From an uncultured Chloroflexia bacterium (GTDB taxonomy: Bacteria; Chloroflexota; Limnocylindria; Limnocylindrales; CSP1-4): 64,000 nucleotides of DNA. The DNA lies in contig CAVTXK010000002.1 of assembly GCA_963738685.1 (NCBI GenBank), positions 1,603,815 through 1,667,814 on the forward strand, written 5' to 3'. This document shows, piece after piece, positions 10,958-62,848 of this stretch. A program made the translations under genes and the position numbers. The notes under the pieces are model-generated. The model was not told where the DNA came from and searched no databases. It was given only the letters and a program-made list of their open reading frames with translations. Numbering within the stretch: the stretch's first letter is position 1; every line of letters starts with the position of its first letter.

Positions 10958-11698
10958 CTATGGCGTCGTCTCGATCGTGGCGGTGAACTCGCCGGCGGGG
11001 GCCGGACCGTCGAATGTCAGGCGCAGGACATGACCCTGCCCACCCAGCGTGTCGCCCTGACACGCCGGCCGGGTGATCCGCAGGGTCCGGCCGTCGGGGT
11101 CGATCTCGAGCTCGTGGCTCGTGTCGCACACGTTGCCGCCCCAGGTCAGCACGACGGTCGAGGGATCGGCCGGGTCGTTCTCCACCCGCACGGTCTCCGG
11201 CGGCACGTCCACGCCGTCGCCGGGATCACCGGACACCGCCTCGACCAGCGTGAACGACGCGTCGGTGACGTCGATGAAGGCGTCCTGCCCGACGTGCTCG
11301 ATGAGATCGACGCGGGTGGTCTCGGGGTTCGGGCCGACGGTCGGCGCCACCGACGGCGGCACGGCCGACGGTGACGACGACGGCGACGGCGACGGATCCA
11401 CGATCGGCGGGACGACCGCCGGCTGGCGCTGGTCCAACCACCGACCGACCCCGACGCCGGCCAGGGCGACAGCCAGCAGCAGGGCCAATGCGGCGAGGAG
11501 CGGCACCGGCTGCAGCAACCCAGCGAAGCCCGAGGAACTCCCCATCGGGTCGCGGCGGAGCGCACGGAACGGGTCGCGCCGGCGCGGGTGGGCGCGGGCA
11601 TGCGCGAGGGCCACCTCGATCGTGGACTCGGAGGCGCGGCTCGGCCCCTCATCGAAGAAGGCGGCGATCCGCCGGTCGGTGTCGTTGCTCATGGTCAT
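10958..11698 (-). CDS. anti-sigma factor: cytoplasmic N-terminus, one TM helix, Pro/Ser linker, extracytoplasmic domain
   Basis: The ATG at 11698 overlaps the sigma stop (ATGA). MTMSNDTDRRIAAFFDEG..., TM helix LLQPVPLLAALALLLAVALAGVGV, PSPSPSSSPS linker. Confidence 0.65.
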   Translation of the reverse strand: MTMSNDTDRRIAAFFDEGPSRASESTIEVALAHARAHPRRRDPFRALRRDPMGSSSGFAGLLQPVPLLAALALLLAVALAGVGVGRWLDQRQPAVVPPIVDPSPSPSSSPSAVPPSVAPTVGPNPETTRVDLIEHVGQDAFIDVTDASFTLVEAVSGDPGDGVDVPPETVRVENDPADPSTVVLTWGGNVCDTSHELEIDPDGRTLRITRPACQGDTLGGQGHVLRLTFDGPAPAGEFTATIETTP

Positions 11699-12262
11699 GC
11701 CGTGCGCTCCCTGGGGTCGTCGATACGGGCGTCGGCTTCGAGCGCCGCGCGCAGGGCGCGGGTCGCGTAATGGAGTCGGGAGTTGGCCGTGCCGACCGGG
11801 ATCCCGAGGACATCGGCGATCTCGGCTGCGGACTGGCCGCCGTAGTGATGCAGGGTCAGGATCGCGCGCTGCTCGGGCTTGAGGCGGCGAAACCCGCGCT
11901 CGACCTGGTCGCGATCCGCGACCGTAGCCGATGTCGTCGGCCGCTCGGGACGCGTCGGCGTCGTCGGGGAGCAAACGGACCACCGCCCCACCGCCCGGTC
12001 CCCGACGCTCGCGCTTGGCGGCGGCGACGCTGGCCCGCACGATCAATCGATAGCTCCACGCGTCGAACCGGTCGGGATCGCGCAGCCGCGGGAGCTCGTC
12101 CCAGATCGTGACCAGGGTCCCCTGCACCGCGTCCTCCGCCAGGTGGTGGTCGCGCAGGATCCGATAGGCGATCGCGAACAGGCGGTTCGCCGATGCGCGG
12201 ACCAGGGCCTCGAAGGCCTCCTGGTCGCCACGCGCGGCCCCTTCCACGAGTGTTCGCTGCAC
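11695..12262 (-). pseudogene. ECF (group 4) sigma-70 factor, interrupted by an apparent +1 frameshift
   Basis: Region 2 (FEALVRASANRLFAIAYRILRDHHLAEDAVQGTLVTIWDEL...FDAWSYRLI) is in the frame of 10958..12262. Region 4 (LKPEQRAILTLHHYGGQSAAEIADVLGIPVGTANSRLHYATRALR) is in the frame of 11695..11991. The shift lies between 11915 and 11991. Confidence 0.7.
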
Positions 12263-12425
12263 GTTCGGTCGTCTCCTGCGGTCGGTCGTTCGTCGAGTAT
12301 GGGGAACGGCGAGCCGGATTCCTTCAAAGATCGCCGGCTTCGCGGTCTCATGACGTTCTCAGGCAGGACGACTGGAATGGCAGCCATGGACCGCTTCGAC
12401 CAGCACCCCGACGAATCCGACATTC

Positions 12426-13376
12426 GTGCCCCTTACTCCGGTCCGTCCGTCCCCCCCGGGCGGACCGGACCTTCCGGCGACCCGCGCCGGCGAGCCCATC
12501 CCATCCGCGATTCCAACGGCGTCCTCCTCCCGTCCGTTGCGTGGTCGATGGCTCGCCGGCGTCCTCGCCGTGTCGATGCTGTCGGCCGTCGTGGGATCGG
12601 TGGGCACCGTGGGGTTGCTCACCGGGATCGGCGCCACGGACCCGGGAACCGGCACGACCGGCGTGACCGGTACGACCACCGGCGCGACGACGGGCACCAC
12701 GACGTCACCCGTCGACATCACCGCCTCGGACGCGGTGGTCGCCGTGGCCGAATCGGCCAGCCCGGCCGTCGTGACCATCACGGTCGGATCGGCCGGCAAC
12801 GAGGGCTTCGGGCCGTATTCCGTCCCATCGACCGGCGTCGGATCGGGCTTCATCTTCGATGACTCCGGGCTCATCCTGACCAACAACCACGTGATCGAGG
12901 GCAGTGACCAGATCACCGTTACGCTCCAGGACGGTTCGGAGCTGGCGGGCACGGTCATCGCCACGGACACCGAGCACGACCTCGCGGTCGTGAAGGTCGA
13001 TACCGCCCAGGACCTGCCGACGATCCCCATCGGGGACGCCGCCGCCCTCAAGGTCGGCCAGCTGGTCATCGCGATCGGCAGCCCGCTCGGCACGTTCACC
13101 GAGTCGGTCACGTCGGGGATCCTGTCGGCCACCGGCCGGACCATCGAGGTCGGTTCCGGGATGAGCCGCCAGACCACCACGATGACCGGGCTCCTGCAGA
13201 CCGATGCGGCCATCAACTCCGGCAATAGCGGCGGGCCGCTGCTCGACGCCTCGGGCGCGGCGATCGGGGTCAACGTCGCCGTCGCCGCGAGTGCGCAGGG
13301 GATCGGCTTTGCCGTCCCGATCGATGCGGCCGCGGCCGTCATCGCCGAGGCCCGCTCGGCGGCGGGGATCGCATAG
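12426..13376 (+). CDS. HtrA-like trypsin-fold serine protease (S1C) with an N-terminal TM anchor and no PDZ domain
   Basis: 316 aa. TNNHVIEG (His), DLAVVKV (Asp), GNSGGPLLD (Ser). The start is uncertain (GTG at 12426; an out-of-frame ATG at 12386). Confidence 0.85.
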   Translation: MPLTPVRPSPPGGPDLPATRAGEPIPSAIPTASSSRPLRGRWLAGVLAVSMLSAVVGSVGTVGLLTGIGATDPGTGTTGVTGTTTGATTGTTTSPVDITASDAVVAVAESASPAVVTITVGSAGNEGFGPYSVPSTGVGSGFIFDDSGLILTNNHVIEGSDQITVTLQDGSELAGTVIATDTEHDLAVVKVDTAQDLPTIPIGDAAALKVGQLVIAIGSPLGTFTESVTSGILSATGRTIEVGSGMSRQTTTMTGLLQTDAAINSGNSGGPLLDASGAAIGVNVAVAASAQGIGFAVPIDAAAAVIAEARSAAGIA

Positions 13377-13435
13377 GGCGCGCTGCCCCCAGTCAGGGCC
13401 GAATCGCGGGTTCGGGGCATACTGCACCGATCCTC

Positions 13436-14334
13436 ATGCTTGACTCCGCGTCCCCGCTCCGTCCTCGTCGCGCCCTCGTCGCCTTCCTCATTGCGGCCCT
13501 GACCGTCGTCGCGTGCCAGCCGGGCGACCCTGGGGCACCGACCTCCGCGGCCACGATGGCGGTGGCACCGACCGGAGAGCCGACACCGACCGGAGAGCCG
13601 ACACCGACCGGAAAGCCGGCACCGAGCGATGACGGCGCGACGGCGGGCGAGCCCGGTCCGAGCGCGACCGTCGACCCGGCACCGACCGCCACCGCAACGC
13701 CCACGCCACTCCCGGAGGTCGCCGAAGCCGACCCCGAGCCCTTCGCGATGAACCTGTTCCGCAGGGGCGACTTCGTGGCGCAGTACACCTTCGAGTGGTG
13801 CGTCGGGGCCAGCCTGCAGATGGCCCTCAACATGGCCACCGACCGATCGCGCACGACCCGGGCCGACCAGCGAGACCTCTGGGAGGCGGCCCGCGACCAG
13901 AGCTTCAGCCCGTTCGGCGGCGCCAATCCGCGCGGCTGGACCGCGGTGCTCAACGACCTGGGGATCGGCCCCTACGAGCTGGTGTCGCTCCCGACGTTCG
14001 ACGACGCCATGACTGCCGCGGCCGAGGCGATCCGGGCCACCAAGCGGCCCGTCGGCCTCGTGATGTGGCGCGGCCGGCATGCCTGGGTCATGAGCGGCTT
14101 CGAGTCGACCGCCGACCCCCGGACCTTCGATGACGTTCGATGTCACCGGGATCCGGGTCCTGGACCCGCTGTATCCGCACGGCAGCTCCGTCTGGGGCAA
14201 CAGCCCGAAACCGAACAGCCTCGTCTCGCCCGACGACGCTGGCCAAGCAGTTCGTCCTGCGCGACAGCACCCGGGTCAACCTCGGCGTGCCGCCCGGCTA
14301 CCTGCTCGTGCTGCCCGTCGCCGCCGAGGCCTGA
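13436..14334 (+). pseudogene. lipoprotein with papain/C39-like cysteine-peptidase domain, two apparent +1 frameshifts
   Basis: Lipobox LTVVAC, (PTGEPT)n linker, EWCVGASLQMALNM (Cys) and GRHAWVMSGF (His). Continues as FDVTGIRVLDPLYPHGSSVWGN (frame of 14130) and LAKQFVLRDSTRVNLGVPPGYLLVLPVAAEA* (frame of 14140). Confidence 0.55.
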
Positions 14335-14473
14335 CGCGCGCCCGCCTCGCGACTGCAACACGGTCGTCACGCGCCGGGCGACCGGAGCGCGTCTCCCGCA
14401 TCGCCGCCGTCCGTACGGTGTCGCCGACCCCCAGGACGACAACCACCACAGCGACGGCAAGGGGAGGGCCCAC

Positions 14474-14983
14474 ATGAGCGAGGCGAAGTACGGCGACGAG
14501 TTCATCACGCACGAGTTCGATGAGGCGATCGCGATCCAGCAGGCCATCGTCGATGGTGGGGAGAAGCTGAGCACCGCGCACGCCCGGTCGGAGTCGAAGC
14601 GACTCATCAAGACCGCGCTCCGCGAGGACGAGAAGTACCTCCGCGAGCTGCGGCGGCTCGGCAGGAAGCACGACGCGACCGGCAAGCTCGAGGGTGTCGC
14701 GCTCGCGCTCAAGGAGTTGATGGACGAGACGGCCCAGAGCGCCGCCGAAGCACCGAGCGAGTCCTACGAGGCGCACGCGGTGCTGATCAATCTCAAGCGC
14801 AAGCAGCAGGACTCGGCCGCCGCGATGCTCAAGATCGCGCGCGAGCAGAAGGACACCGAGCTGCGCGACGCAGCGACCGAATTCGGGAAGGCGACCAAGG
14901 CCAGCGCCCAGGAGCTGGCCGATGATCTCGCCCTGTTCGCGGTCGAGATCGCCATGATGCAACCGACCCAGGCCCGCGCCTGA
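14474..14983 (+). CDS. all-helical hypothetical protein (possibly ferritin-like/DUF892-like)
   Basis: ATG at 14474 after an AAGGGGAGGG RBS. 169 aa, rich in E/K/A heptad-like helices. A strong terminator follows. Confidence 0.5.
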   Translation: MSEAKYGDEFITHEFDEAIAIQQAIVDGGEKLSTAHARSESKRLIKTALREDEKYLRELRRLGRKHDATGKLEGVALALKELMDETAQSAAEAPSESYEAHAVLINLKRKQQDSAAAMLKIAREQKDTELRDAATEFGKATKASAQELADDLALFAVEIAMMQPTQARA

Positions 14984-14999
14984 ACCAGCCCGCGGATCC

Positions 15000-15033
15000 C
15001 AACGGCCCCTCCCGGCTACGGGAGGGGCCGTTG
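15000..15033 (+). terminator. rho-independent terminator
   Basis: 14-bp perfect stem CAACGGCCCCTCCC / GGGAGGGGCCGTTG with loop GGCTAC, then a T-containing tail. Confidence 0.65.
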
Positions 15034-15115
15034 TCGTTCGTGCTCCTTCGCGTGACCCCATGCGGTGAGCGTGGCGGGCGCACCCGCGTGACGCGATCGC
15101 GGGCAGCCGGTACCG

Positions 15116-16399
15116 TTGCGCGGTGCTGCCCCACGTCTCCCTGCCGCGTTGGTCGTGAACCCGCGGCGCGCCAGATCGCTCATCGCCGTGGCGGTCTCTG
15201 CGATCCTGATCGCCGGCGCGTGCGGGACGGTCACCCCGAATGAGTCCGACGCGGCCGTGACCGAACCGAGCACCCCACCGGCCACGGTCCGCCCCACGAT
15301 CGTGCCGATCCCCGGCCACGAGGTCTACGGCTTCCTCCCGTACTGGGAGATGGACGACGCGATCGTCGAGCACGTCGGCGCGACCGACCTGACGACCCTT
15401 GCCCTGTTCTCCGTCACGCATCGACGCGATGGCGAGCTGGACGACGCCCAGAACGGCTACAACCAGATCACCGACGGGCTCGGGCGCGAGATCATCCGGG
15501 CCGCCCAGGATCGGGGCACCCGGGTCGAGCTGGTGTACACGAGTTTCGGCGCCGGCAAGAACCGCCAGTTCTACACGGAGCCCGAGGCCCAGGAGCGCTG
15601 GATCGAGGTGCTCGTCGATCTCGTCGTGGAGCTCGGGCTCGATGGCATCAACGTCGACGTCGAGAGCCTGCCGCAGGAGCATGTGCTCGACTACGGCGCA
15701 TTCGTCGGTCGGTTGCGCGAGGCCCTTCGCGCGTGGCTGCCCGATGGGCAGGTGTCGGTCGCGACGCAGGCCAACCAGACCGGCGCCGCGATGGCGGCGG
15801 CGGCCGCCGCGGCCGGGGCCGACCGCATCTTCCTCATGGGGTACGACTACCACTGGGCGGGTTCAGAGCCCGGCGCCTCAGCGCCGATCGACCGGATCGA
15901 TGGGGAGGAGCGGGACCTCATCTGGTCGCTCGACCTCTACGGAGCGCTGGGCGTGCCGGTCGACCGGACGATCCTGGGGCTGCCGCTGTACGGCATGACC
16001 TGGCCGGTCATCGGTCCGGGGGTCGGGTCGCCCTCCACGGGACGCGGCGACGCGTGGGTCCCGCGGCGCAACCTGGACGTGATCGCGGATCCGTCGTTCG
16101 AGCCGCTGTTCGAGCCGGTCCAGAGCGTCGAGTTCTACGCCGTCCCGACCGATGGAGCAGCGTCGGCGTCACCGTTGAGTAGCGGCTCCCCGTCCGCCTC
16201 CGACGAGGCCGTGCCGCGGACCGAGGCGTGGACCGCGGTCTATTACGACTCGCCCCGGAGTCTCGCCCCGAAACTCGCCCTGGCCGACGAGCGCGGCCTG
16301 GCCGGTGCTGGCTTCTGGGCCATCGGCTACGAGCGTGGCCTGCCCGACTACACCGAGCTGATCGCCACGTTCCGAGCCGGCGACATCGCGGCGCCCTGA
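15116..16399 (+). CDS. GH18 glycoside hydrolase-like lipoprotein (chitinase/spore-cortex-lytic type)
   Basis: 427 aa. Lipobox LIAGAC. GH18 catalytic motif LDGINVDVE (DxxDxDxE). MGYDYHW. Confidence 0.8.
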   Translation: MRGAAPRLPAALVVNPRRARSLIAVAVSAILIAGACGTVTPNESDAAVTEPSTPPATVRPTIVPIPGHEVYGFLPYWEMDDAIVEHVGATDLTTLALFSVTHRRDGELDDAQNGYNQITDGLGREIIRAAQDRGTRVELVYTSFGAGKNRQFYTEPEAQERWIEVLVDLVVELGLDGINVDVESLPQEHVLDYGAFVGRLREALRAWLPDGQVSVATQANQTGAAMAAAAAAAGADRIFLMGYDYHWAGSEPGASAPIDRIDGEERDLIWSLDLYGALGVPVDRTILGLPLYGMTWPVIGPGVGSPSTGRGDAWVPRRNLDVIADPSFEPLFEPVQSVEFYAVPTDGAASASPLSSGSPSASDEAVPRTEAWTAVYYDSPRSLAPKLALADERGLAGAGFWAIGYERGLPDYTELIATFRAGDIAAP

Positions 16400-16562
16400 C
16401 CTCAGGGGAATAGCCGCGTCGCCCAGGGACGCCTGATTGCAATCCGCCTGCAAGGCCGGCGCCCGCATGGTCGAGGCGGCCAACGAGCCGGGCTGACTAC
16501 GCTGGTTCGAGGTCGTCGCCCGGGCCGATATCCCGCCCGTGTGCGTGGCAGGAGGACCAACG

Positions 16563-17884
16563 ATGGACACTTCGCGCATCACGTGGCGCGTTCTCGCGCT
16601 GTTCGCCGCCCTGAGCCTGGCGATCGCCGCGTGTGGCACCAATGACGGGTCCGGCGCCGTGGGCGGTAGCGCCGCGGCACCCAGTTCGGATGCCGGCGCC
16701 GGAGCCTCCGGCGCCTCGGCCGAGCCCTCCGCCGCAGCAAACCTGAGCGGCGAACTGACCGTGTGGGCCATGGGCAACGAAGGCACCAAGCTCCAGGTCA
16801 TGGCCGACAAGTTCATGGCCGCCAACCCGGGCGTCACGGTCAGCGTCACCCCGGTCGACTGGGGCCAGGCCGTCGCCAAGCTGCAGACCGCCATCGGTGG
16901 CGGCGAGACGCCGGACGTCAGCCAGATGGGCACCGACATGATGGGCCAGTTCGTCGAGACGGGCGCCCTCGAACCGGTCGGCGCCGGCATCGACCCGAGC
17001 GTGTTCTTCGAGAGCGCCTGGCAGACCGGCGTGGTCGATGGCCAGGCGTACGGCGTGCCGTGGTACGTCGAGACGCGCGTCCTCTACTACCGGACCGACG
17101 TCGCCGAGAAGGCCGGGATCACGGCCGCCCCGACCACCTGGGACGAGCTCATGACGATGGCCAAGGCGATGCAGTCCCAGGGCGGCGCCGAATGGGGCAT
17201 CGCGCTCGGGACCAAGAACGGGCAGGAGTACCTGCCGTTCGTCTGGTCGAACGGCGGTGACGTCCTCGGCGAGGACGGCGCCTTCACGCTCGATTCCCCG
17301 CAAGCGGTCGAAGCGCTCACGTATCTACGACTCGTTCTTCGAGGAGGGCCTGACGCCGAAGTCGGTCCCGGAAGGCTTCGACATCACGCCGGCCTTCGTG
17401 GCCGGCACCCACCCGATGTTCTTCTCCGGGCCGTGGCACCTCGGCCTCATCACGGAGGCCGGTGGCGCCGACATCGAGGGCAAGTGGGCGATCGCCCCGA
17501 TGCCGAAGAAGGTGACTGGAACGTCCTTCGTGGGCGGCAGCAACCTCGTCGTCTTCAAGGACAGCCCGAACAAGGACGCAGCCTGGGCGTTCGTCCAGTT
17601 CATGGCCGACCCGGCGAACCAGGTCGCCTGGTACGAGGAGGCGACCGTGCTGCCGGCCGTCCAGAGCGCGTGGGAGGATCCTGCCCTCGCCGACGATGCG
17701 AACGTGGCCATCGTTCGGGACGCAGCTCGAGGACACGAAGGCCCCGCCGCCCATCCCGACCTGGAACGAGGTCTCGACCGCGATCAACGACAACCTCGAG
17801 CGGGTCACGACCGGAGATGTGGCCCCCGCGGACGGAGCGAAAGCGATGGAGGACGAAGCCACCGCGATCGGCACGGGCCAGTAG
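16563..17884 (+). pseudogene. sugar ABC transporter substrate-binding lipoprotein, two apparent +1 frameshifts
   Basis: AGGAGG RBS. MDTSRITWRVLALFAALSLAIAACG. Homology continues from the frame of 16539 to the frame of 17257 (YDSFFEEGLTPKSVPEGF...) near 17325, and to the frame of 17696 (SFGTQLEDTKAPPPIPTWNEV...) near 17710. Confidence 0.75.
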
Positions 17885-17886
17885 CC

Positions 17887-18886
17887 ATGGCCCAGCGAGT
17901 TGATCCGGTCGGGCCGCCACGCTCGACCGGATCGGTCCGCGATGCTGCGGCTGCCCCGGCGCTCGCCGGTGCCATGGGCGGCGCGGCCATGCGTCGCGAA
18001 CCGCACATCAGCCTCCGTCAGAACCTCACCGGCTGGGCCTTCGCCTTGCCGTTCGTGGTGATCTTCCTGGTCTTCATGGCCGGGCCGCTGCTCGCATCGC
18101 TGGTGCTGAGCCTGACCGACTTCGGCCTGCGCGACCTGCGCAACCCGCTCGGCGTGAACTTCATCGGGCTCCAGAATTACGTCGAGCTCCTCGGCGACAC
18201 CACCTTCCACAAGGCCCTCGCCAACACCGCCTACTTCGTGATCGTCGGCGTCCCCCTGACCCTGGGTCTCGGCCTGGCGGCGGCGTTGGCGCTGGACCGC
18301 GGCATCCGGCGATTCCGCACCGTGTACCGGGTGGGCTACTACCTGCCGGTGGTCACGAGCATCGTGGCGATCGCCGTGGTCTGGCGGTTCGTGCTCAATC
18401 CCGATTACGGGCTGGTCAACATGACCCTGGGCGCGATCGGATTCGAGGGGCCGGACTGGCTCGGCAATCGAGATCCTGGCCATGCCGTCGCTCATCGTGA
18501 TGGCTGCCTGGCGCAACCTCGGATTCGCGATGGTCCTGTTCCTGGCCGGCCTGCAGACGATCCCGGTCCAGCTCTACGAGGCGGCGTCCATCGACGGCGC
18601 AAGCCGCTGGGCCGCGTTCAAGTCGGTGACCCTGCCGCTGCTCCGACCGACCCTGTTGTTCGCCGTCGTCATCACCACGATCGGGTACCTCCAGGTGTTC
18701 GAGGAGCCATTCGTCATGACCGACGGCGGCCCACTCGACAGCACCCTCTCGATCTCGATGTTCATGTACCAGGAGGGCTTCGAGTTCTTCCACCAGGGCT
18801 ATGCCGCGGCGATCGCCTGGGTCCTGTTCCTGCTCGTTGCCGTCATCGCGGTCGTCCAGTTCCGCGCACTCCGGTCGCAGACGTGA
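17887..18886 (+). pseudogene. sugar ABC transporter permease (MalF/UgpA type), one apparent +1 frameshift
   Basis: LTGWAFALPFVVIFLVFMAGPLL... then the frame of 18482 with the EAA loop LYEAASIDGASRWAAFKSVTLPLLRP. Removing one C at 18475/18476 gives GNRDLAMPSLIVMAAWRN. Confidence 0.75.
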
Positions 18887-18899
18887 CGGAGGTGTACGC

Positions 18900-19770
18900 G
18901 TGACCGCCCTTGCCCGCCCAGCGCCGCTGCGCGCGGCCGGCGCACCGAGGCGCAGTCGCGCCTCGATCGTCCTCTATGTCCTGCTCACGCTGGGACTCAT
19001 CCTGATGATCGCGCCGTTCGTCTGGATGGTCCTGGGCTCGTTCAAGCCGCAGGGCGAGTTCCTGCGCCTGCCGCCGACCTGGTTGCCCGAGCAGCCGACC
19101 CTCGACAACTACCAGCGCCTCGTCGACCAGCTGGACATGCCGCGCTTCTTCTTCAACTCGATCGTCGTGGCGGCCGTCGTGACCACCGGGACCCTCGTGT
19201 TCGCCCCGATGCTCGGCTATGCCCTGGCCAAGCTCCGGTTCGTCGGCAAGGGCGTGCTCCTGGGCCTCGTCCTTGCGACGTTGATGCTGCCGGGTGCGGC
19301 CATCCTCGTGCCCCAATTCGTGCTGATGAGCGCCCTCGGGTTGGTGAACAGCTACCCGGCGCTGATCCTGCCGTTCCTCGCCGGACCGTTCGGTGTGTTC
19401 CTGACCCGTCAGTTCTTCTCCGGCCTGCCGGACGAGCTGCTCGAGGCCGCCCGCATGGACGGAGCCAGCGAGTTCCGGATCTTCTGGACGATCGCGATGC
19501 CCCTCGCCGGCCCGGTCCTTGCGACCCTGGGCATCCTGACGTTCCTGGGCTCGTGGAATTCGTTCATCTATCCCGCTCGTGATGGCCCAGGAGCCGGAGA
19601 TGTACACGCTGCCGGTGGCCCTGGCGACGTTCGCGACGGGTCAGTACCAGGCCGACCACGGGATGCTCATGGCCGGCGCCCTGGTCCTCGTCCTGCCCAT
19701 CCTCATCATCTTCGTGCTGCTCCAGCGCTGGATCACCGAAGGCATCGCGACGACGGGCCTGAAGGGCTGA
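18900..19770 (+). pseudogene. sugar ABC transporter permease (MalG/UgpE type), one apparent +1 frameshift
   Basis: GTG at 18900 after GGAGG. EAA loop LLEAARMDGASEFRIFWTIAMPLAGP. Removing one C from CCC at 19572-19574 gives NSFIYPLVMAQEPEMYTLPVALATF. Confidence 0.75.
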
Positions 19771-19815
19771 CCCGTCGCCGACGGCCGGAGCGGCCGCCGA
19801 ACAGGAGGTATCGAT

Positions 19816-23228: not shown

Positions 23229-23255
23229 AGTCGCGCCCGCGCCATCCGGGAGACA

Positions 23256-25070: not shown

Positions 25071-25080
25071 ACCGACGGCC

Positions 25081-27463: not shown

Positions 27464-27522
27464 GGCACGGATGGTAGCCGGAGCTGCGGTTCGTAACGGT
27501 TCGGTGACGTCGAGGCGCTATC

Positions 27523-28317: not shown

Positions 28318-28331
28318 CTCGAATGTGACGA

Positions 28332-44349: not shown

Positions 44350-44351
44350 GC

Positions 44352-45480: not shown

Positions 45481-46043
45481 AGGACCGCCTCCGATCGGGC
45501 GATCTCATCGGATCGGGCCGCGAAGAACTCACGCGGTCGCCAGCCGAAGACCCAGGCCAGGACAAGGGCCGGCACGGTCGAGATCCTCGTGTTGTAGCGG
45601 TAGACCTGGTCGTTGTAGAGCTCGCGGCGGTCCGCGATCATGCTCTCGAGGCGTTCGATCTCGTCCTGCAGGTCGAGCACGTTCTGCTGCGACTTGAGCT
45701 CCGGATAGGCCTCGACGACGGCGAACAGCGAGCGGACCGCGGCGGTCGTGGCGTCGGAGTGGACGGCCTGGTCCGGGATGGGCTCGGTGGGGGAGTAGGC
45801 GGCCCGAGCCTGCGCCACTTCCGTGAGCACCTGCTGCTCGAAGGCCAGGACGCCGCGCACCGCCGACACGAGGGCGGGCAGTTGGTCGTGGCGCTGCTTG
45901 AGCGCGACATCGATGTTGGACCAGGCCTTGTCGATGCGTTGCCGTAGTGCCATGACAGCGTTGTAGTTTGCTACCACGATGAACGCCACGATCGCGACTA
46001 CGAGTCCGACGGCGAACGCGGCGACCATCGAGGCGGGGGTCAT
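45477..46043 (-). CDS. lemA: LemA family protein
   Basis: 188 aa. N-terminal TM helix, YNAVMALRQRIDKAWSNIDVALKQRHDQLP, YNTRI. Confidence 0.9.
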   Translation of the reverse strand: MTPASMVAAFAVGLVVAIVAFIVVANYNAVMALRQRIDKAWSNIDVALKQRHDQLPALVSAVRGVLAFEQQVLTEVAQARAAYSPTEPIPDQAVHSDATTAAVRSLFAVVEAYPELKSQQNVLDLQDEIERLESMIADRRELYNDQVYRYNTRISTVPALVLAWVFGWRPREFFAARSDEIARSEAVL

Positions 46044-47129
46044 GGGGCGAGCTCCGGGCCGACCATGAGCGCCAACGCCAGCGCACAGCCGATCGCGAGC
46101 ACCGCGCCGAGCAACCCGATGATGAACCGATCCTGGAATCGGTCGGCGGCGACGCCCGGCACCCCATGCGCGATCAGCAGCGGCACATCCGGCGCGCTGG
46201 CCATGACCAGCGCGCCGGGCGCGATCGCGAACCGTCGTTCGATCTGCGCAGCTTCCTCGGGCGGCGCCACCGGCAGGGCCTGGGCCGCGGGATCCAGCTC
46301 CGGCGTTCGCACCGGCCGTCCGACCCCGAAGCCGGGGATCGCGGCGTTGCCCCAGGCCTCCTCGGGGGTATCGGCCAGCAGCCCGGCCTCCCGCGCCTCC
46401 GCGATGTTCGCGTTGACCTCGTAGTCGTCGACGGCCACCTCCGATCCGAGCGCGATGTCGGCCTCGGCCGGATCCGCCAGGTCGGAGAAGGGCATCGCCC
46501 GGCCGACGATCGTGACCGGATCGCCGGGCTCCAATCGAGACTCGCGGTACCGTCGCCCCCGATCGGACCCGCCCATCCCGCCCGCGCCGTCGCGGAGCAA
46601 CGGATGTCGATTCGCGTCGACTGCCGGTCGGACCGACAACAGCACGGCGATGGCCGCCTCGCGGTCCAGCTCGGCTGCCGGCAGCGCGATCGCGCCACCG
46701 GTCCGCAAGGCCAGGCCGGGCGGCTCGTCCCCGAACGTCCCGGTCCGGTCGTCGAAGCTCATCGGTACGTCCCAGCGACCCCCGCGCGGGAAGACCCGGA
46801 TGTCGCCGGAGGCGTCACGGACCCGAAAGCCGATGGCCCGTTCCTCGTCGAAGTCGGCGCTCCCCGAGTCATCATCCCGGTCCACGGTTGCCCGGTAGTA
46901 CACGCACGGCCGGCTCTGCAGCGGGGAGATGAGCGTCACCTCGGCCGCCTCGACCACGCCGCTCACCCGCACCTCGCCGGCCGCCAGCGAGCGGATCGTC
47001 GACGTGCCGGTGTCACCGATCCGGGTCGCGCTGCGATAGCCCCGACATCCCGCGTACCAGGAGCCACAGCCCGGCGACCACGCCGGCGGCCGCCAGCGCG
47101 GCGACCAGCCCATCGAACCCCGACTCCAT
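46040..47129 (-). pseudogene. GIDE-domain membrane protein, one apparent +1 frameshift near the 5' end
   Basis: The ATG at 47129 gives MESGFDGLVAALAAAGVVAGLWLLVRGMSG (TM helix). The rest (YRSATRIGDTGTSTIRSLAAGEVRVSGVVEA...) is in the frame of 46040..47137. The junction is the CCCC run at 47040-47043. There is a C-terminal TM helix. Confidence 0.65.
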
Positions 47130-47162
47130 GCACGCATCGTACGGGGCTTGCCGACCCCGCCG

Positions 47163-48319: not shown

Positions 48320-48445
48320 GCCGTCACGATACGCGCCGGCGCCTCCTCGCGCACCTCGTCATGCGGTCCGATGGTCGTGTGCTAGCCTCCGGCGAACGGC
48401 CGGGACGGGTCCGGCACGTGCCATCCTGTTAGAGAGGATCCGCGC

Positions 48446-48988: not shown

Positions 48989-49005
48989 CTGGCGCTTCGC
49001 CCACC

Positions 49006-49857: not shown

Positions 49858-49915
49858 GCGAGTCGGTCTGGCATACTCGGGCGGACGTCCCCAGGTCCAC
49901 TGCACAGGAGCGTTC

Positions 49916-50281: not shown

Positions 50282-50297
50282 GGCCGTCGGCCTCCGT

Positions 50298-52922: not shown

Positions 52923-53006
52923 CGGCCCGGCTGGGGGAGACCGGCGTGGCGGGACGGGCGGGATGTCGACCATGCTACTCCAGGCATGGCTGTCGCGAAC
53001 GCGCGG

Positions 53007-53051
53007 GTTATCCACACGGATCGGGAGTTGTTCACCATTTCCGTGGATAAC
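53007..53051. promoter_or_regulatory. inverted pair of DnaA-box-like 9-mers: GTTATCCAC(A) ... GTGGATAAC, 27-nt spacer
   Basis: TTATCCACA at 53008-53016 is the exact E. coli-type DnaA box. The reverse complement of 53042-53050 is TTATCCACG. A TATGAT -10-like hexamer follows at 53060-53065. Confidence 0.4.
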
Positions 53052-53072
53052 TGGGACCGTATGATGGCCGGT

Positions 53073-53088
53073 GTCCTTGCACAAAGAC
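53073..53088. promoter_or_regulatory. palindrome copy 2 (GTCCTTGCACAAAGAC) in the pccB leader
   Basis: 7 nt downstream of TATGAT and about 30 nt upstream of the GGAGG (53103) + TTG (53116) start signals. Confidence 0.55.
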
Positions 53089-53115
53089 GGGCTGCGCACG
53101 ACGGAGGTCGACACG

Positions 53116-54660: not shown

Positions 54661-56261
54661 CCACGACCTCCGACTCGGCCCGCCCGTCTTTGCGCAAGGA
54701 CAGGTCGGGGCCGCCATTCCACCGGCTGTTGGTAGCGAACCGGGGGGAGATCGCGGTGCGGATCATCCGCACCTGCCGAGACCTGGGTGTCGAGACGGTC
54801 GCGGTGTTCTCGGACGCCGACGCGGATGCCCTCCATGTCCGCCTGGCCGATGCCGCGGTCCGCCTTGGACCCGCACCGGCGGGGGAGAGCTACTTGCGAT
54901 CCGATGCGATCGTCGCCGCGGCGCTGGCCTCGGGCGCCGAGGCGATCCACCCCGGTTACGGCTTCCTGTCGGAACGCGCGTCGTTTGCTCGAGCGGTCGC
55001 GGACGCCGGTCTCGTCTTCGTCGGCCCGAGTGACGAGGCGATCGACGCGCTCGGCGACAAGCTTGCCGCGCGGCGGACCGCACAGGCCCACGGCGTGCCC
55101 GTGGTCCCGGGTACGTTCGAGCCGGCACCGGTAGATCGCCCCGACGATGTCGGCGCGATCCTTGCAGAGGCGGAGCGCATCGGGTTCCCCTTGCTGGTCA
55201 AGGCCTCGGCCGGCGGCGGTGGTCGCGGGATGCGGCGGGTCACCTCGGCGAACGACCTGCCGACTGCGCTAGCGGCCGGTTCCGCCGAGGCACGCGCCGC
55301 GTTCGGAGATGGGGCCGTCTACCTCGAATGTGAGATCAGCCCGGCGCGGCATATCGAGGTCCAGCTGCTCGGCGACGCCGACGGGACGATCGTGGCGCTC
55401 GGCGAGCGCGATTGCTCCATCCAGCGCCGACACCAGAAGCTCGTCGAGGAGACACCGGCCCCGGGCCTGACCGTCGGGGAGCGCGCGGCGTTGCATGCCA
55501 TGGCCGTCATGGCCGCACGGGCGGCGAATCTGCACAACGCGGCGACCGCGGAGTTCCTCTTCGATGCCGATCGACGGTTCTGGTTCCTTGAGGTCAACGC
55601 TCGCCTCCAGGTCGAGCACGGCGTGACGGAACTCGTCACGGATCTGGACCTCGTCGCGGAACAACTCTGGATCGCCGCCGGCGCCCCGTTGTCGGATGAG
55701 GCCCGGAGCGCCGCGGACGCCGCCGCGACACCGACCCGCCACGCGATCGAGATCCGCCTTGCGGCCGAGGACCCGGCACGCGATTTTGCGCCCGCGCCCG
55801 GGCGGATCGGATCGTGGGTGATGCCATCGGGACCGGGGGTTCGCGTCGACACGGCGATCCGTCCTGGCGAACGCGTGCCGCCCGACTACGACCCGCTCAT
55901 CGCCAAGGTCATGACGGTGGGCGCGGATCGACGGGAGGCGCTCCTGCGGATGCGGCGCGCCCTCGACGAGATCGAGGTGACCGGCATCCAGACGACCTTG
56001 CCGTTCGACCGCGCGCTCCTGCGTGATCCGGCCTTCGTGGACGGGGAGGCGCTCGGGACCGACTGGGTCGAGCGACGCTGGGATGGCGCCGAGGACCGAG
56101 CACGATCGTATCGACGGGCGGCCGAAGCGGCGGCGGCCGCGAGCCAGGTCGACGCCGACGGCGGTCGTGACGAAGGGTCGTCTTTGCGCAAAGACGCCGA
56201 GCTCGGCGGAGCGTGGCTCGAGGCCGGGCGCGCCGCCGCGATCTCGCGCTGGCCGCGATGA
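54657..56261 (+). CDS. biotin carboxylase subunit of acyl-CoA carboxylase (no BCCP domain)
   Basis: The GTG overlaps the pccB stop (GTGA). [47 protein letters not shown]. Has a roughly 60-aa non-conserved C-terminal tail. Confidence 0.9.
54686..54701. promoter_or_regulatory. palindrome copy 3 (GTCTTTGCGCAAGGAC), about 25 nt after the pccB stop
   Basis: The 16-mer is identical to the parB copy. Confidence 0.55.
56179..56196. promoter_or_regulatory. palindrome copy 4 (CGTCTTTGCGCAAAGACG, perfect 18 bp), about 60 nt upstream of the BCCP start
   Basis: Read directly. Confidence 0.55.
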
Positions 56262-56746
56262 GCGCGCCGGGTCCGATGCGAGTGAGCCCGGCCCCGAACA
56301 CGGCTCATCCCGAAGATGCCCAGGTCGTGGTCTCGCCCGATGACGCGCATGAAGCCCGCGTCGACGCCCGAACCCAGGTCGGTCGCAGCGGACCGATGGA
56401 CCGAGCCGGCCGCCACCCGGTGGAGGTCGTTGTCGATGGCTGGCGGTTCGAATTCCTCGTCGAGGACGAAGCCCGTGCGGCCCTCCGCGACCGAGCCACG
56501 CGCGGCCGGGGGGCCGCCGGCACGACCGATGGCCCGCTGGAGATCCATGCCATCATCCCGGGGAGGATCCTGGACGTCGCCGTCGTCGCGGGCGACACCG
56601 TCGAGGCCGGCCAGACGCTGCTAGCCGTGGAGGCCATGAAGATGCAGAACGAGCTTCGGGCACCACGGGCCGGAACCGTGACCCGCGTCGCGGTCGCGGC
56701 CGGTACGACCGTCGAGCTCGGTGACCTCCTCGTGGTCCTGGGATGA
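56258..56746 (+). CDS. biotin carboxyl carrier protein (biotinyl/lipoyl domain)
   Basis: The ATG overlaps the upstream stop (ATGA). Biotinylation motif EAMKMQNEL in a C-terminal hammerhead domain. Confidence 0.8.
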
Positions 56747-58449
56747 CCGGCACCACGGGCAGCCTGCCCCACCCGCCCCGCCCGACCGGGGAGGGCCACG
56801 ACCCCGGCCGCGACCGATGGCGCGAGACGCTTCGGGCGAAGGCCGTCAAGGCGGCCGCCGAGCGCCGTGATCCCTTTGCGACCTCGTCCGGCATCACGAT
56901 CCGCGACCTCTACACCGCGGCCGACATCGCCGGTCTAGACGAGGAGCGCGACCTCGGACGGCCGGGCGAGTATCCGTTCACCCGAGGCGTGCAGCCCACG
57001 ATGTATCGCGGCCGCTTCTGGACGATGCGCCAGTACGCGGGCTTCGCCACGGCCGAGGAGACCAACCGCCGGTTCCGCTACCTCCTCGATCAGGGCCAGA
57101 CCGGGCTCTCGGTCGCCTTCGACCTGCCGACCCAGATGGGCTACGACTCGGACGCCGCCGCCGCCGAGGGGGAGGTGGGTCGGGTCGGCGTTCCGATCAG
57201 CAGCCTCGCCGACATGGCCGTCCTCCTCGATGGCCTGCCGCTCGGTCAGGTGAGCACCTCCATGACCATCAACGCCACGGCGCCCGTGCTGCTTGCCCTG
57301 TACGTGGCCGCGGCCGAGGCCCAGGGCGTCGAGCGGGCCAGCATCAGTGGGACGACCCAGAACGACATCCTCAAGGAGTACATCGCCCGCGGCACGTACA
57401 TCTTTCCGCCCCGCCCGTCGATGCGACTGGTGACCGATGTCTTCGAGTTCTGCGCCGGCGAGCTGCCCAAATGGAACACCATTTCGATCAGCGGGTACCA
57501 CATGCGCGAGGCCGGAGCGACGGCCGCCCAGGAGCTCGCCTTCACGCTGGCCGACGCCATCGCTTATGTCGATGCGGCCGTGGAGCGCGGTCTGGACGTC
57601 GACGACTTCGCCGGGCGGCTGTCCTTCTTCTTCGCGGCCTGGTCGGAACTGTTCGAAGAGGTGGCGAAGTTCCGAGCCGCCCGCAGGATGTGGGCCACGA
57701 TCATGCGGGAGCGGTTCGGCGCCACGAATCCGCGCTCGCTGCTGTGCCGTTTCCACGTCCAGACCGCCGGGTCGAGCCTGACCGCCCAGGCGATCGACAA
57801 CAACGTGGTCCGCACCACGGTCCAGGCCCTCGCGGCGGTCCTTGGCGGGGCCCAGAGCCTCCACACGAACTCCCGCGACGAGGCCCTTGCCCTGCCCACC
57901 GAGGAAGCGGCCCGCCTCGCGCTTCGAACCCAGCAGATCCTCGCCTACGAGGCCGGCGTGACCGAGACGCCCGACCCCCTGGCCGGCTCGTACTACGTCG
58001 AAAGCCTGACCAACGAGCTCGAGGCGGCCGCCTGGGCCTATCTCGACGAGATCGAGTCGTTGGGCGGCACCCTGGCCGCCATCGAGCGCGGCTTCCAGCA
58101 ACGGGAGATCCAGGAGGCGGCCTACCGGGTCCAGCGAGCGGTCGACAGCGGCGAGCAGGTCGTCGTGGGCGTGAACAAGTTCCGCGACGACGAGATCGCG
58201 ACGCCGCCGACCCACCGGATCGATCCGGAAGGAGAGCGGCGCCAGGTCGAGCGCGTCCGGCGCGTGCGGGCCGAGCGCTCGGATGAGGCGTGGACCGCCG
58301 CCATGGATGAGCTCGAGCGCGTTGCCCGCGCCGACGGCAACCTGATGCCCCAGATCCTCGCGGCGGTGCGCGCCTACGCGACCGTCGGCGAGATCAGCGA
58401 CCGCCTCCGCATGGCGTGGGGCGAGCATCGCGAACTGATCACGGTCTGA
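56743..58449 (+). CDS. methylmalonyl-CoA mutase family, large catalytic (TIM-barrel) subunit without B12-binding domain
   Basis: 568 aa. [54 protein letters not shown]. Ends before any DxHxxG B12 domain. Confidence 0.9.
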
Positions 58450-58450
58450 T

Positions 58451-59353
58451 GTGATGGATCGACCTCTGACGGCCGACCTCCACGAACGGCTCGCCCCCGA
58501 GGGCAGCGGGGGTTTCGTCGTGGCGAGTGCGGTGGATCCGTCGGCCATGGCGGCCCTCGCCAACGAGTTCGGCGCGCGTCACGCGGTCCTGGATGGCCCG
58601 ACGACGAAACGCGGCCTGATCGAGGCGCTCGCCCGGGGTCTCGACTTCCCGCCGAGGACCGGCCGGACCTGGGCTGCGCTCGAGGGATGGCTCGCCCGAC
58701 CCGAGCCGCCGTTCGACGGACCGGTCATCGTTACGTGGCTGCATCCGGCCCGCCTCGACCCGGCCGATGCCGGGACGTTCCGCTCGATCGTCGATCAGGC
58801 GGCGGCCGCCCGGCAGGCCGCGGGTGGTGGCCACCTCCTCGTCGTCGCCGGACCGGCTCTTTCGGCCACGGGCGGGGTCCCCGTCGCCCCGGCGGTCCCG
58901 AGTGCGATCCGTGGCCTCGGCAAGGTCCACCATGTCGCGCTCATCGTCGCCTCGATCGAGGACGCGCTGGGGTTGTGGCAGGAGATGCTCGGGCTGGAGC
59001 TCGAGACGGTCATGGACATCGCCTCGGACCGCGTCCGGATCGCGTTCCTCCGCGTCGGCGAGTCCAAGATCGAGCTCGTGCAACCGACCGACGATACGAC
59101 CGGGGTCGCGCGGTTCCTGGCCTCGAAAGGGGAGGGCTTCCACCACGTCTGCTTCGAGGTCGCGAACCTGGCCGAGACGCTCTTGCGTCTCGAGATCGAC
59201 GGCCTGGAGCTCATCGACTCAGCCCCCAGGCGTGGCGCCGAGGGACCCGTCGCGTTCATCCATCCGCGGTCGTGCCACGGCGTCCTCGTCGAGCTCATCG
59301 AGGCGCCAGGGGGTCCGGCCTGGCACGCCCTGGGATTCGAGTCGCCGAGTTGA
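58451..59353 (+). CDS. fusion: N-terminal barstar-like domain + C-terminal methylmalonyl-CoA epimerase (VOC fold)
   Basis: 300 aa. AVLDGPTTKRGLIEALARGLDFPPRTGRTWAALEGWL aligns with barstar [39 protein letters not shown]. The C-terminal KVHHVALIVASIEDALGLW...GEGFHHVCFEV...IHPRSCHGVLVELIE is MCE-like. Confidence 0.7.
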   Translation: MMDRPLTADLHERLAPEGSGGFVVASAVDPSAMAALANEFGARHAVLDGPTTKRGLIEALARGLDFPPRTGRTWAALEGWLARPEPPFDGPVIVTWLHPARLDPADAGTFRSIVDQAAAARQAAGGGHLLVVAGPALSATGGVPVAPAVPSAIRGLGKVHHVALIVASIEDALGLWQEMLGLELETVMDIASDRVRIAFLRVGESKIELVQPTDDTTGVARFLASKGEGFHHVCFEVANLAETLLRLEIDGLELIDSAPRRGAEGPVAFIHPRSCHGVLVELIEAPGGPAWHALGFESPS

Positions 59354-59427
59354 GGCTGGTCCCGCCGGCCCTCGACTAAGCTGGGCCATCGACCGACAAC
59401 GACAATCGCTTGGAAGGGGACGACACC

Positions 59428-59748
59428 ATGATCCTGTCCACGACCCCATCGATCGAGGGGCGCACGATCGCCGAGTACCGGGGCATCGTCACCGGCGAAG
59501 CCATCCTCGGTGCGAACATCTTCAAGGACCTCTTCGCGGGCATCCGCGACATCGTCGGTGGGCGGGCGGGCGCCTACGAGCGAGAGCTCGCGCGAGCGCG
59601 CTCGCTCGCCCTCGAGGAACTCGAAGCGGTAGCGGTCGGACTCGGCGCCGATGCCGTCGTCGGCATCGACCTCGACTACGAGACGGTCGGCCAGGGCGGC
59701 TCGATGCTGATGGTCACGGCCTCGGGGACCGCCGTCCGCCTGGGCTGA
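59428..59748 (+). CDS. YbjQ/UPF0145 family protein
   Basis: ATG at 59428 after [55 protein letters not shown]. Confidence 0.8.
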
Positions 59749-59764
59749 GGACGCGCAGCGCGAA

Positions 59765-60031
59765 TCAGTCGCGGAACGCGCGCGAGGACTTGTTGCGCTC
59801 TTCCTTGGACGGCTTCGGCTCGCGGCCCGGCCGCGGGGGCTTGGGCGCCGTGCCGGGAGCCATCGGCTCCGGCGGTGGCAGCGGACCGCGCGCCCGGGCG
59901 GCTGCGACGGCGGTGTTGAACGACTTGGCGACCTCGGGCGTCAGGCTGCCGAGCCACGCGGCCTCGATCTCCTTGACGCGGATCGTCTCGTTGGCTCGGC
60001 GCTCGCGCTCCGAGCGGGAATGCTTGGTCAT
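59765..60031 (-). CDS. small basic hypothetical protein
   Basis: 88-aa ORF that is Lys/Arg/Pro-rich. Coding status is uncertain. Confidence 0.4.
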   Translation of the reverse strand: MTKHSRSERERRANETIRVKEIEAAWLGSLTPEVAKSFNTAVAAARARGPLPPPEPMAPGTAPKPPRPGREPKPSKEERNKSSRAFRD

Positions 60032-60114
60032 GGTCCGTCCTTGGTCGTGGGGTCGGGCGAACGGACGGATGGGTCCCGTTCGCGGTCAGCTCGATCCGGG
60101 AAGTGTACGCCGGT

Positions 60115-60963
60115 TCAGGCCTCGGTCGGCTTCGTCGCCCGCAGCGAGAACATGAGCGGCAGCTCCCCGCCACCCGCCGGGAGGACGAATCGGCCACTCC
60201 CGGGCTCGCTCTCGACGAGGAAATCCGCGGCCCAGTCGAGGTAGGGATGCTCCTCGAGCGACTCGATCCGGAGCCCGGCGTCGATGAGGGCCGTGACGAT
60301 CTCGCCGAGCCCGTGGTCCCAGCCGTGCTCCTTCTGCTCGCCGACGTCCGCTGACGGGTCCGCGTATGAACCCTTGACGTCGAAGACGAGCGGGTCGCGG
60401 TGCTCCCAGTACGGATAGGTGAGCCGCAGCTCGCCAGGGGCCACGCCCTCGTTCTCGAAGACCTGCATGACGGGATGGGCTTCGGTGATGAAGAAGGTCC
60501 CGCCCGGTGCGAGGAAATGGGCCACGACCCGCGCCCAGCCGCGGATGTCCGGCAGCCAGCCGATCACGCCGCGTGAGGTGTAGACCACGTCGAACCGGCC
60601 GTCGAGATGCTGCGGCAGGTCGTACAGGTTCGACTCGACGAAGCGAGCATCCGCGATGCCGATGTCGCGGGCGATCTCGCGGGCGAGTCGGATGGCGGCC
60701 GGGGAGAAGTCGGCCCCGGTCACGCGAGCGCCGAGGCGCGCCCAGGAGAGCGTGTCGATGCCGAAGTGGCACTGCAGGTGGAGGAGGGTCCGGCCACGGA
60801 CGTCTCCGACCGCGGCGATCTCATCGTCGCGCAGACGGATGCCGCCCTGGCGGAACCCAGCCAGGTCGTAGAACTCGCCCTGCGCATGGACGGCGGTCCA
60901 TGCCTCCCAGAGGCGCTGGTTCGCCGCGTACGAGCCGGCGTGGTCGGGGGCGTCGGCCATCAC
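60115..60963 (-). CDS. class I SAM-dependent methyltransferase
   Basis: 282 aa. LLHLQCHFGIDT (motif I variant), FDVVYTSRGV, LAPGGTFF. Confidence 0.85.
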   Translation of the reverse strand: MMADAPDHAGSYAANQRLWEAWTAVHAQGEFYDLAGFRQGGIRLRDDEIAAVGDVRGRTLLHLQCHFGIDTLSWARLGARVTGADFSPAAIRLAREIARDIGIADARFVESNLYDLPQHLDGRFDVVYTSRGVIGWLPDIRGWARVVAHFLAPGGTFFITEAHPVMQVFENEGVAPGELRLTYPYWEHRDPLVFDVKGSYADPSADVGEQKEHGWDHGLGEIVTALIDAGLRIESLEEHPYLDWAADFLVESEPGSGRFVLPAGGGELPLMFSLRATKPTEA

Positions 60964-61445
60964 AGCGCCCAGAGGAAGACGACGACCGGCGCCCGGTCCG
61001 CCTTCCGGCAGAACTGGACGAGGTCGCCGGCGAGCTCGCGGATCCAGGGCTTCTCCTCGCCCGGCAGCACGCCGAGCTCCTCCTCCAGCCGATCGATCCA
61101 GCGGCCCGCGACGCCGTCGAGCGTGATCTCGGGGATGGCCGCGACCGCCGAGATCCAGGCCGGGTCGACGCGCTCGATCGACAGGTCGGAAGCGGGTGCG
61201 TCGGGCGCCGGTTCACCGCTGCCGAGCTCCGTGCGCGCGTCGATGAAATCGACCGGGGCATCCTGCTCGGTCGCGGTCCGGACCGCCTCGGCGAACAGGT
61301 CCAGCCAGGTCGGGTCCATCCCGCCGCTCAGCGAGAGGTAGCCGGGGAACCGGTCCTTGTCGCGCAGGGCGTCGCGGTCGTCGGTCGAGAGCACGACGAG
61401 GATCTCGGTGACGTCGCCGGCGATGAGCTCCATGCGCGAGCTCAT
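60960..61445 (-). CDS. hypothetical acidic protein
   Basis: The ATG at 61445 overlaps the DinB stop (ATGA). 161 aa. The Arg-rich upstream part of the track ORF was rejected. Confidence 0.5.
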
Positions 61446-61948
61446 GGTCGCGGCTCCGTCTCGGTCTCGGCCCCCGTGGCCCGGGCCCGCTCCTCGGAGA
61501 AATCGATCATGTCGAGATCGCCCGGGGAGTGGCCGACCGCGGTGAGCAGCACGGCCGCCTCGGATCGGTGCTGCGTGCCGTGGTTCACGACGTGGGTGAG
61601 CATCTGCCAGTACGGGATCCCCTCGTCGGTCACGTTCAGGGCGTCGTCGTCCAGGCCGTCGAGCCACCGATCGAGGTCCAGCCACTCCTGCTCCCAGCGG
61701 GCGCGCAGGTCCTCGATCGTGGGGAGCGGCTCGCGCTCGGGACGCGGCACCTCCGGGGAGCCGGAGAGCCCGTGCCGCCAGCGCTGGCTGGCGCCCAGGT
61801 GGTGGACCAGGATGCCGCCGAGACCCCGTTGGTCGATGGCGTTCTCGGCCGACCAGGTCGCCTCGTCCACGCCGGCCGTCGCCTCGAGCACGCGCCGCGT
61901 TGCCCAACGATCGAAGTCGAACAGGAAGCGCAGGTCGGTCTGACGCAT
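61442..61948 (-). CDS. DinB/DUF664-family four-helix-bundle protein
   Basis: The ATG at 61948 gives [23 protein letters not shown]... [22 protein letters not shown] (His triad). Confidence 0.8.
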
Positions 61949-61961
61949 GGTCGTCGCTCCT

Positions 61962-62848
61962 TCAGCCGCGGTAGCCGGCGTCACGGAGGAGGGCGGGCAG
62001 CTCGGTGGGGGAGCCCGCGACCAGGAACCCGGCCGCCTCGAGCGCCTCGACCTTGGACGCGGCGGTCCCTGCGCCGCCGGAGATGATCGCCCCGGCGTGG
62101 CCCATGCGCTTGCCCTCCGGCGCGGTCCGTCCCGCGATGAACGCGACCTTGGGCACGTCCTGGAGATGCTCCCCGGCCCAGGCGGCGGCCGTCTCCTCGG
62201 CCGCGCCACCGATCTCGCCGATGAGCACGATCGCGTCCGTCTCGTCGTCCGCCGCGAACAGCTGGAGCGATGTCCAGGAACGTCGTGCCGATGATCGGGT
62301 CGCCACCGATGCCGACGCACGTCGACTGGCCGACACCGGCGTCGGTCATCGCCTGGACGGCCTCGTAGGTCAGCGTCCCCGATCGCGAGACCACGCCGAC
62401 CCGGCCCTCGCGATGGACCGAACCCGGGATGATCCCGACCTTGGCCCGGCCCGGCGAGGTGGCACCAGGGCAGTTGGGCCCGATCAGCCGCGCCCCGCGC
62501 TCCCGGACGAACTCGACGACCGCGACCATGTCGAGGGCCGGGATGCCCTCGGTGATGCAGAAGATCGTGGCGATGCCCGCCGCGGCGGCCTCCATCACCG
62601 CGTCCGGGGCGCCAGCCGGCCGGGACGAAGATCAACGAGGTGTTCGCACCGGTCTCGCGGACGGCCTCGCGGACCGTGTCGAACACCGGGACCGCGCCGT
62701 CCAGCGCCCGCTGGCCGCCCTTGCCGGGGGTGACACCGGCGACGACGTTCGTGCCGTATTCGCGCGACGCCTGGGCGTGGAACCCGCCCTCGCGGCCGGT
62801 GATGCCCTGGACGACGAGGCGGGTGTCGCGACCGACGAGGATGCTCAT
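61962..62848 (-). pseudogene. sucD: succinyl-CoA ligase alpha subunit, two apparent +1 frameshifts
   Basis: [24 protein letters not shown] (frame of 62848). [19 protein letters not shown]...[10 protein letters not shown]...[14 protein letters not shown] (frame of 62598). [21 protein letters not shown]...MGHAGAII (frame of 62336). Junctions at about 62612 and 62268. Confidence 0.8.

Follow-up and report, generated by a model that had tools for sequence, protein, structure and literature searches.

Nanopore-only assemblies are known to carry single-base insertions and deletions (indels) that split conserved genes genome-wide and lower marker completeness despite high contiguity, the more so where coverage is low or the sample is a soil metagenome; classically, these errors are described as deletions in long homopolymers and in low-GC genomes. 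Reading frames are also broken or shifted for biological reasons. Decaying genomes, e.g., those of Mycobacterium leprae and of recent symbionts, hold many disrupted genes, some of them clustered in operons, whereas in +1 recoding a shift is suppressed by tRNA-Pro at CCC-N (sufA6/sufB2, m1G37 deficiency) or is programmed, as in prfB. As for assemblies, those from Nanopore R10.4 reads become near-perfect only from ca. 40x, and the leftover indels frameshift gene calls (bioRxiv 10.1101/2021.10.27.466057), while frameshift errors are commoner in soil assemblies made from Oxford Nanopore (ONT) reads than in those made from HiFi reads (PMC13087279). Here we describe ten +1 frame changes in seven conserved genes within a stretch of 64,000 nucleotides (hereafter the window, contig C2:1603815-1667814) of an uncultured, Limnocylindrales-like Chloroflexota genome of 3.62 Mb, assembled in two contigs (C1 and C2) with 70.5% GC.

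The window genome resembles each of these systems in some respect. Like decaying genomes it has many disrupted genes, some of them neighbors in one operon; like the tRNA-Pro and prfB systems it shows the +1 direction and, at some of its sites, a proline CCC-G; and like Nanopore-only assemblies it shows single-base indels throughout the genome and a marker completeness that is low for so contiguous an assembly, although here over 90% of the lesions are insertions and the GC content is 70%. Judging from the sequence comparisons given below, we consider it very probable that the ten changes are insertion-type consensus errors and that the seven genes would be intact in vivo. The feature would then not be biological.

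Ten frame changes in the window

The initial annotation had listed ten frameshifts in seven genes, every one of them displaced by +1, and all ten are borne out by three-frame translations, by the phase of GC content at third codon positions (GC3) and by alignments with relatives (Table 1). At each of the ten places, coding continues from frame f to frame f+1 along the direction of transcription, and the GC3 phase is displaced by one position. This periodicity is very strong in the window genome (GC3 ~0.9, GC2 ~0.5), the phase signal being weaker for two short segments of the C39-like lipoprotein gene and for the N-terminus of the GIDE-domain gene. A frame change of one base gives full-length family architecture in each broken gene, and no other lesion accompanies it (translations, multiple alignment of sucD with MAFFT, tblastn).

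Table 1. Genes of the window with +1 frame changes (window positions; strand as transcribed)
Gene	Coordinates	Strand	+1 changes	Site of change	Basis
ECF sigma factor	11695..12262	-	one	within 11927-11958	regions 2 and 4 in different frames; translation, GC3 phase
C39-like lipoprotein	13436..14334	+	two	~14138-14141 and ~14227-14231	translation, tblastn, GC3 phase
ABC-transporter solute-binding protein	16563..17884	+	two	17282-17364 and ~17710-17714	
ABC permease 1	17989..18886	+	one	~18468-18476	translation, G011 alignment, GC3 phase
ABC permease 2	18894..19770	+	one	~19569-19574, TATCCCG context	translation, GC3 phase
GIDE-domain membrane protein	46040..47129	-	one	~47038-47050	translation, open reading frame limits
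sucD (succinyl-CoA ligase alpha subunit)	61962..62848	-	two	~62606-62617 and ~62267-62269	

The clearest case is sucD. In a MAFFT alignment with the genes of six congeners, each of which is an intact open frame of ca. 300 aa, exactly two single-base columns are private to the window, near 62614-62617 and at 62268, with support from tblastn with four relatives. The read-through product has 294 aa and is thus equal in length to database proteins that are 94% identical to it. One JGI entry with a SucD annotation, 395 aa long, scored above these 294-aa proteins (684 bits) at only 77% identity and may come from a gene call that was fused or duplicated.

For the transporter operon, relatives' open reading frames (ORFs) locate most of the changes. 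The binding-protein ORF of congener G011 matches in frames 3, 1 and 2 (tblastn), with switches bracketed at 17347-17525 and 17714-17757, and the GC3 phase runs 1, 2, 0 over the same gene; the first of its two shifts was narrowed to the interval in Table 1 by pairwise DNA alignment with a relative's sequence (L009). For permease 1, tblastn with relatives' ORFs brackets the change at 18468-18473. The change in permease 2 was put near 19571 by pairwise DNA alignment with G011, and a two-frame tblastn match was not obtained for this gene with the relatives' ORFs.

In the ECF sigma factor gene, the ortholog from congener G012 matches in frame -1 over 12229-11927 and then in frame -2 over 11958-11698. 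The insertion error also accounts for the 434-aa sigma/anti-sigma "fusion" ORF at 10958-12262. At 11695-11700 the stop of the sigma gene and the start of the anti-sigma gene overlap (ATGA). In the C39-like lipoprotein gene, a G012 paralogue or orthologue (L020) matches in frames 2, 3 and 1 over 13844-14137, 14142-14231 and 14227-14328. The GIDE change sits between the N-terminal transmembrane helix and the body of the protein, in the coding-strand context CGGGGC; two relatives (G007 and G012) are continuous through this junction, with LLxRGxxSYRxxxR, and tblastn matches only the downstream frame. The GIDE orthologs of G011, G007 and G012 themselves finish in out-of-frame Arg/Pro-rich tails.

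Several further candidates were discarded. A third change in the C39-like gene, near 13840, was rejected on finding frame 2 unbroken from the signal peptide onward, and four tblastn candidates elsewhere in the window (38489, 45624, 50800 and 52389) showed no change of GC3 phase and are therefore regarded as mirrored errors of error-prone query genomes. As tblastn with relatives' ORFs and the GC3 phase revealed no other shift in the 64 kb, the ten sites seem to be all that the window holds.

Direction, context and bunching of the insertions

Owing to the mirrored false shifts that error-prone congener queries produce, a single reference was used to tabulate frame changes beyond the window, i.e., the best congener, G010 (95% complete, 20 contigs), of which 1.7 Mb were taken. 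From these, sense-frame ORFs with a length of 100 aa or more were compared with the whole window genome by tblastn (-comp_based_stats 0), giving a census of 553 orthologous loci that cover 655 kb, or ca. 18% of the window genome. These loci contain 210 frame changes (0.32 per kb), of which 173 are +1 and 37 are +2/-1 modulo three. By net length difference across the junction, 133 events are +1, 17 are +2, ten are -1 and only one is -2, while in events outside these four classes the shift is accompanied by in-frame indels. The "+2" cases mostly contain 9-45 residues without alignment, as if two insertions lay close together. Insertions thus exceed deletions by about 14 to 1, and two smaller, earlier censuses were concordant (46:6 and 103:17).

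The uniform direction noticed in the window (10/10) therefore holds genome-wide, with clean +1 against -1 events at 133:10, and the absence of such a bias, which the initial annotation had named as an outcome that would count against assembly error, was not what the tabulation returned. That annotation had left undecided whether one base was extra or two were missing; given the 133 net +1 events and the single net -2 event, the lesion is one extra base, and the second option falls away. The window is not special in this regard, its shift density being below the genome mean (~0.16 per kb, i.e., ten in 64 kb, and 0.24 per kb in its 100-kb bin, vs 0.32 per kb for the genome). Frame changes are also dense in the window-syntenic regions of three other few-contig congeners (59-77% completeness), which lie on contigs C6 of G011, C7 of G012 and C2 of G007, and few in that of G010.

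By best DNA identity to G010, 94 of the net +1 events were localised. The extra base is most often a single base unlike its neighbors (42/94), less often part of a run of two (10/94) or three (13/94), and ambiguous in 29/94; runs of four bases or longer account for none of the 94, in which respect the window genome differs from the usual pattern of Nanopore indels. Inserted bases are strand-symmetric (in sense orientation C 25, G 22, T 10 and A 8). Among 91 events, the motif CCCG was found on the sense strand at 15 sites (4.9 expected) and its complement CGGG at 11 (5.2 expected), together 26 of 91 against ca. 10 expected, i.e., an enrichment of ca. 2.6-fold on both strands. That both forms are enriched on the sense strand indicates a process blind to gene orientation. 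The insertion either turns CCG into CCCG or adds a base immediately 5' of CCCG, as at the census sites C2:2499709, C2:2504091 and C1:232940, and in the window the permease 2 and GIDE sites are of this CCCG/CGGG kind. Many other insertions generate CGCG, and ca. 70% of sites are without the CCCG/CGGG motif. An association with ATC/ATCG, suspected at the window sites, was rejected in the census (ATC 12 vs 11.4 expected). At several sites a substitution adjoins the extra base, e.g., relatives have GTC where the window has ATCG (sucD, binding protein). The CCCG/CGGG-enriched insertions may represent a motif- or methylation-linked class of basecalling or polishing errors.

The initial annotation had further remarked that the window's changes are clustered, and had reserved that uniform random error does not predict pairs 100-380 bp apart alongside 20 kb of clean genes. 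Both points are well taken, but they describe the whole genome rather than the window. Under a length-weighted random model, 50 census loci carry at least two events where 35.5 are expected (P=1e-4) and 15 carry at least three where 6.4 are expected (P=5e-4), and among loci of 2.4-6 kb, 47% are free of shifts vs 38% expected under a Poisson distribution. At the scale of 100-kb bins, heterogeneity was not significant (P=0.10). Small local bunches of errors occur everywhere in the assembly, and they could be caused by thin or poor local read support, by collapsed strain variation or by motif- or methylation-linked basecalling. The reservation does not rescue a biological reading.

Readings of the extra bases

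The genome-wide +1 bias, the lesions in essential genes and the unchanged protein identity downstream of the shifts (see below) support the proposal, already made in the initial annotation, that these are insertion-type consensus errors. We propose that a noisy long-read metagenome-assembled genome (MAG) of a high-GC Limnocylindrales-like Chloroflexota would have kept single-base errors in its consensus, at about one per 3 kb of coding sequence and roughly a thousand in the whole assembly, with an extra base in more than 90% of cases. These errors would fall mostly outside long homopolymers, with a ca. 2.6-fold preference for CCCG/CGGG on either strand, and in small local bunches that may stem from read support that is thin or poor in places, or from a mixture of strains. 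The platform was most probably Nanopore only, as suggested by the record names of the nearest relatives and by the pattern of contiguity and completeness. Judged by one window protein, MFD04212.bin.1.72 and MFD02134.bin.2.2 are the closest public genomes (86-88% protein identity). Such MFD bins are long-read MAGs of the Microflora Danica project, assembled from Nanopore reads only with Flye and a single round of Medaka, and the authors of that project checked their lower-coverage MAGs for Nanopore-associated errors (PMC12313526).

Several points weigh against this account. The direction bias varies among congeners, G012 being +1-biased and G011 and G007 mixed. Errors in a Nanopore consensus are generally portrayed as deletions in homopolymers, while those seen here are insertions outside homopolymers. 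Their source could be any of several steps or factors, namely the basecaller, the Flye consensus, Medaka, methylation or strain mixture. Finally, a protein-database search with the read-through SucD returned no independent assembly of the same species, the best match being 94% identical.

Within the realm of consensus error, one may ask whether strain collapse or motif methylation-linked basecalling, rather than low coverage alone, was the main source of the insertions. The bunching at the scale of genes and not of 100 kb, the substitutions that adjoin several of the extra bases and the two- to threefold enrichment of CCCG/CGGG on both strands all speak for such a source, but most sites are without the motif, and we regard this refinement as possible rather than likely.

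A more consequential alternative is that the insertions are real mutations in a massively decaying genome and that the affected genes are genuine pseudogenes. The shifts are indeed present in the deposited sequence, and they bunch in some genes and operons, with four in the transporter operon alone. However, at one shift per ca. 3 kb about one gene in four would be inactivated, and among those struck are single-copy essential genes, i.e., rplK (L11, one change), thrS (ThrRS, four changes), infB (IF-2, one change) and dnaE (DNA polymerase III alpha, one change). These were identified by NCBIfam equivalog models, and among all tblastn matches in the window genome, which were listed in full, there was no second copy of L11, ThrRS, IF-2 or DnaE. 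The genes broken here are intact in the 95%-complete G010. Bacterial mutation is deletion-biased and decay yields mixed lesions, whereas the spectrum seen here is almost pure +1 insertion, exceeding deletions by the 14 to 1 given above, and without the mixture of stops, deletions and larger losses that marks decaying genomes. Nor is constraint relaxed past the lesions: proteins share 73% identity with G010 ahead of the shifts and 75% after them, as against 76% for loci without a shift, and GC3 periodicity is kept. Neither hallmark of natural pseudogenes, a mixed lesion spectrum or relaxed constraint beyond the lesion, was thus seen in the census. The tblastn alignments contain 78 in-frame stops. 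Nearly all of these lie where the stop-to-stop queries extend in the 5' direction or where the aligner has bridged a stretch that is off frame, and only 1-3 look like true nonsense codons in 217,000 codons. Decay on this scale is therefore very unlikely in our view.

An apparent nonsense codon in a well-aligned stretch was observed in a TrpB-like gene at ca. 2247800 of contig C2 (AMAGE*PDLVIGC vs GMAGEEPDVIIGC) and is probably a substitution error.

Less credible still is translational recoding, in which the extra bases would be real and read by programmed +1 frameshifting or quadruplet decoding, e.g., by a sufB2-like tRNA-Pro on CCC-N. The idea draws on the +1 direction of all window shifts, on the several window sites that hold CCCG and on the first 58 events of the census, in which in-frame CCCG was in excess at proline codons (15 vs 4.3 expected) and CGGG was not (5 vs 4.8). 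In the larger sample of 91 events this asymmetry disappeared with the enrichment of CGGG on the sense strand, so that a sense-strand-specific proline signal was rejected; a motif enriched equally in antisense, as here, sets this genome apart from the sufA6/sufB2 and prfB systems. No shared in-frame signal emerged from the varied contexts of the census sites: the motif is present at only ca. 29% of them, and elsewhere the contexts are unrelated, with the single odd bases (42/94) foremost. ARAGORN predicted 54 tRNAs, all with 3-nt anticodons, among them three tRNA-Pro (tgg, cgg and ggg), and no four-base or otherwise expanded anticodon was found among these calls. At the corresponding codons, congeners have no extra base. 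Moreover, private insertions also occur in the rRNA operon region, with one in the 23S rRNA gene (3.07 kb), where the window genome has CCATTCAGCAG against CCGTCA-GCAG in three congeners (C2 ~1463470), and two more single-base insertions in the spacer just downstream of it; the 23S count is consistent with the genome rate, but it is without statistical power. Taken together, we give recoding next to no chance. Much the same verdict applies to the related notion that hundreds of real insertions are tolerated through efficient ribosomal +1 shifting, e.g., at proline CCC-G with an unusual tRNA-Pro, TrmD or EF-P state, which, if true, would make this a bacterium with genome-wide +1 recoding and which we hold to be exceedingly improbable.

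Completeness, annotation and minor observations

Consensus errors at the observed density also bear on the apparent completeness of the genome. The two-contig window genome has a marker completeness of 73.14%, and in the genus as a whole the few-contig genomes are 59-83% complete, except for G010 (20 contigs, 95%), while the many-contig genomes reach 77-93%, with three of five at 91-93%. At 0.32 shifts per kb, a marker gene of 1 kb stays intact with a probability of exp(-0.32)=0.73, and 75% of the census loci are free of shifts. The match between these values and the 73% completeness implies that the "missing" quarter consists of broken genes and not of absent DNA, i.e., that the completeness value reflects broken marker genes.

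It follows that the transporter operon, sucD and the genes for the ECF sigma factor, the C39-like lipoprotein and the GIDE protein are to be treated as intact, and no biological significance attaches to their frame changes. With about a quarter of genes split, any claim of gene loss, pseudogenes, fused ORFs or odd operons made on this assembly needs frameshift-aware checking, and the same caution applies to the sigma/anti-sigma fusion, to a "dead" transporter or a "dead" sucD and to several of the few-contig congeners. The error spectrum itself, i.e., insertions only, outside homopolymers and enriched in CCCG/CGGG, may be of interest to those tuning the polishing of high-GC Nanopore MAGs.

A few tRNA predictions deserve mention. 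Four of the ARAGORN calls are of odd length, i.e., Val (83 nt, C1:406907-406989), Arg(cct) (95 nt, C2:994125-994219), Gly(tcc) (93 nt, C2:1789269-1789361) and Ala(ggc) (84 nt, C2:1476266-1476349), and these may contain an intron or an insertion error, or be false calls. A tRNA-SeC was located at C2:757753-757851.

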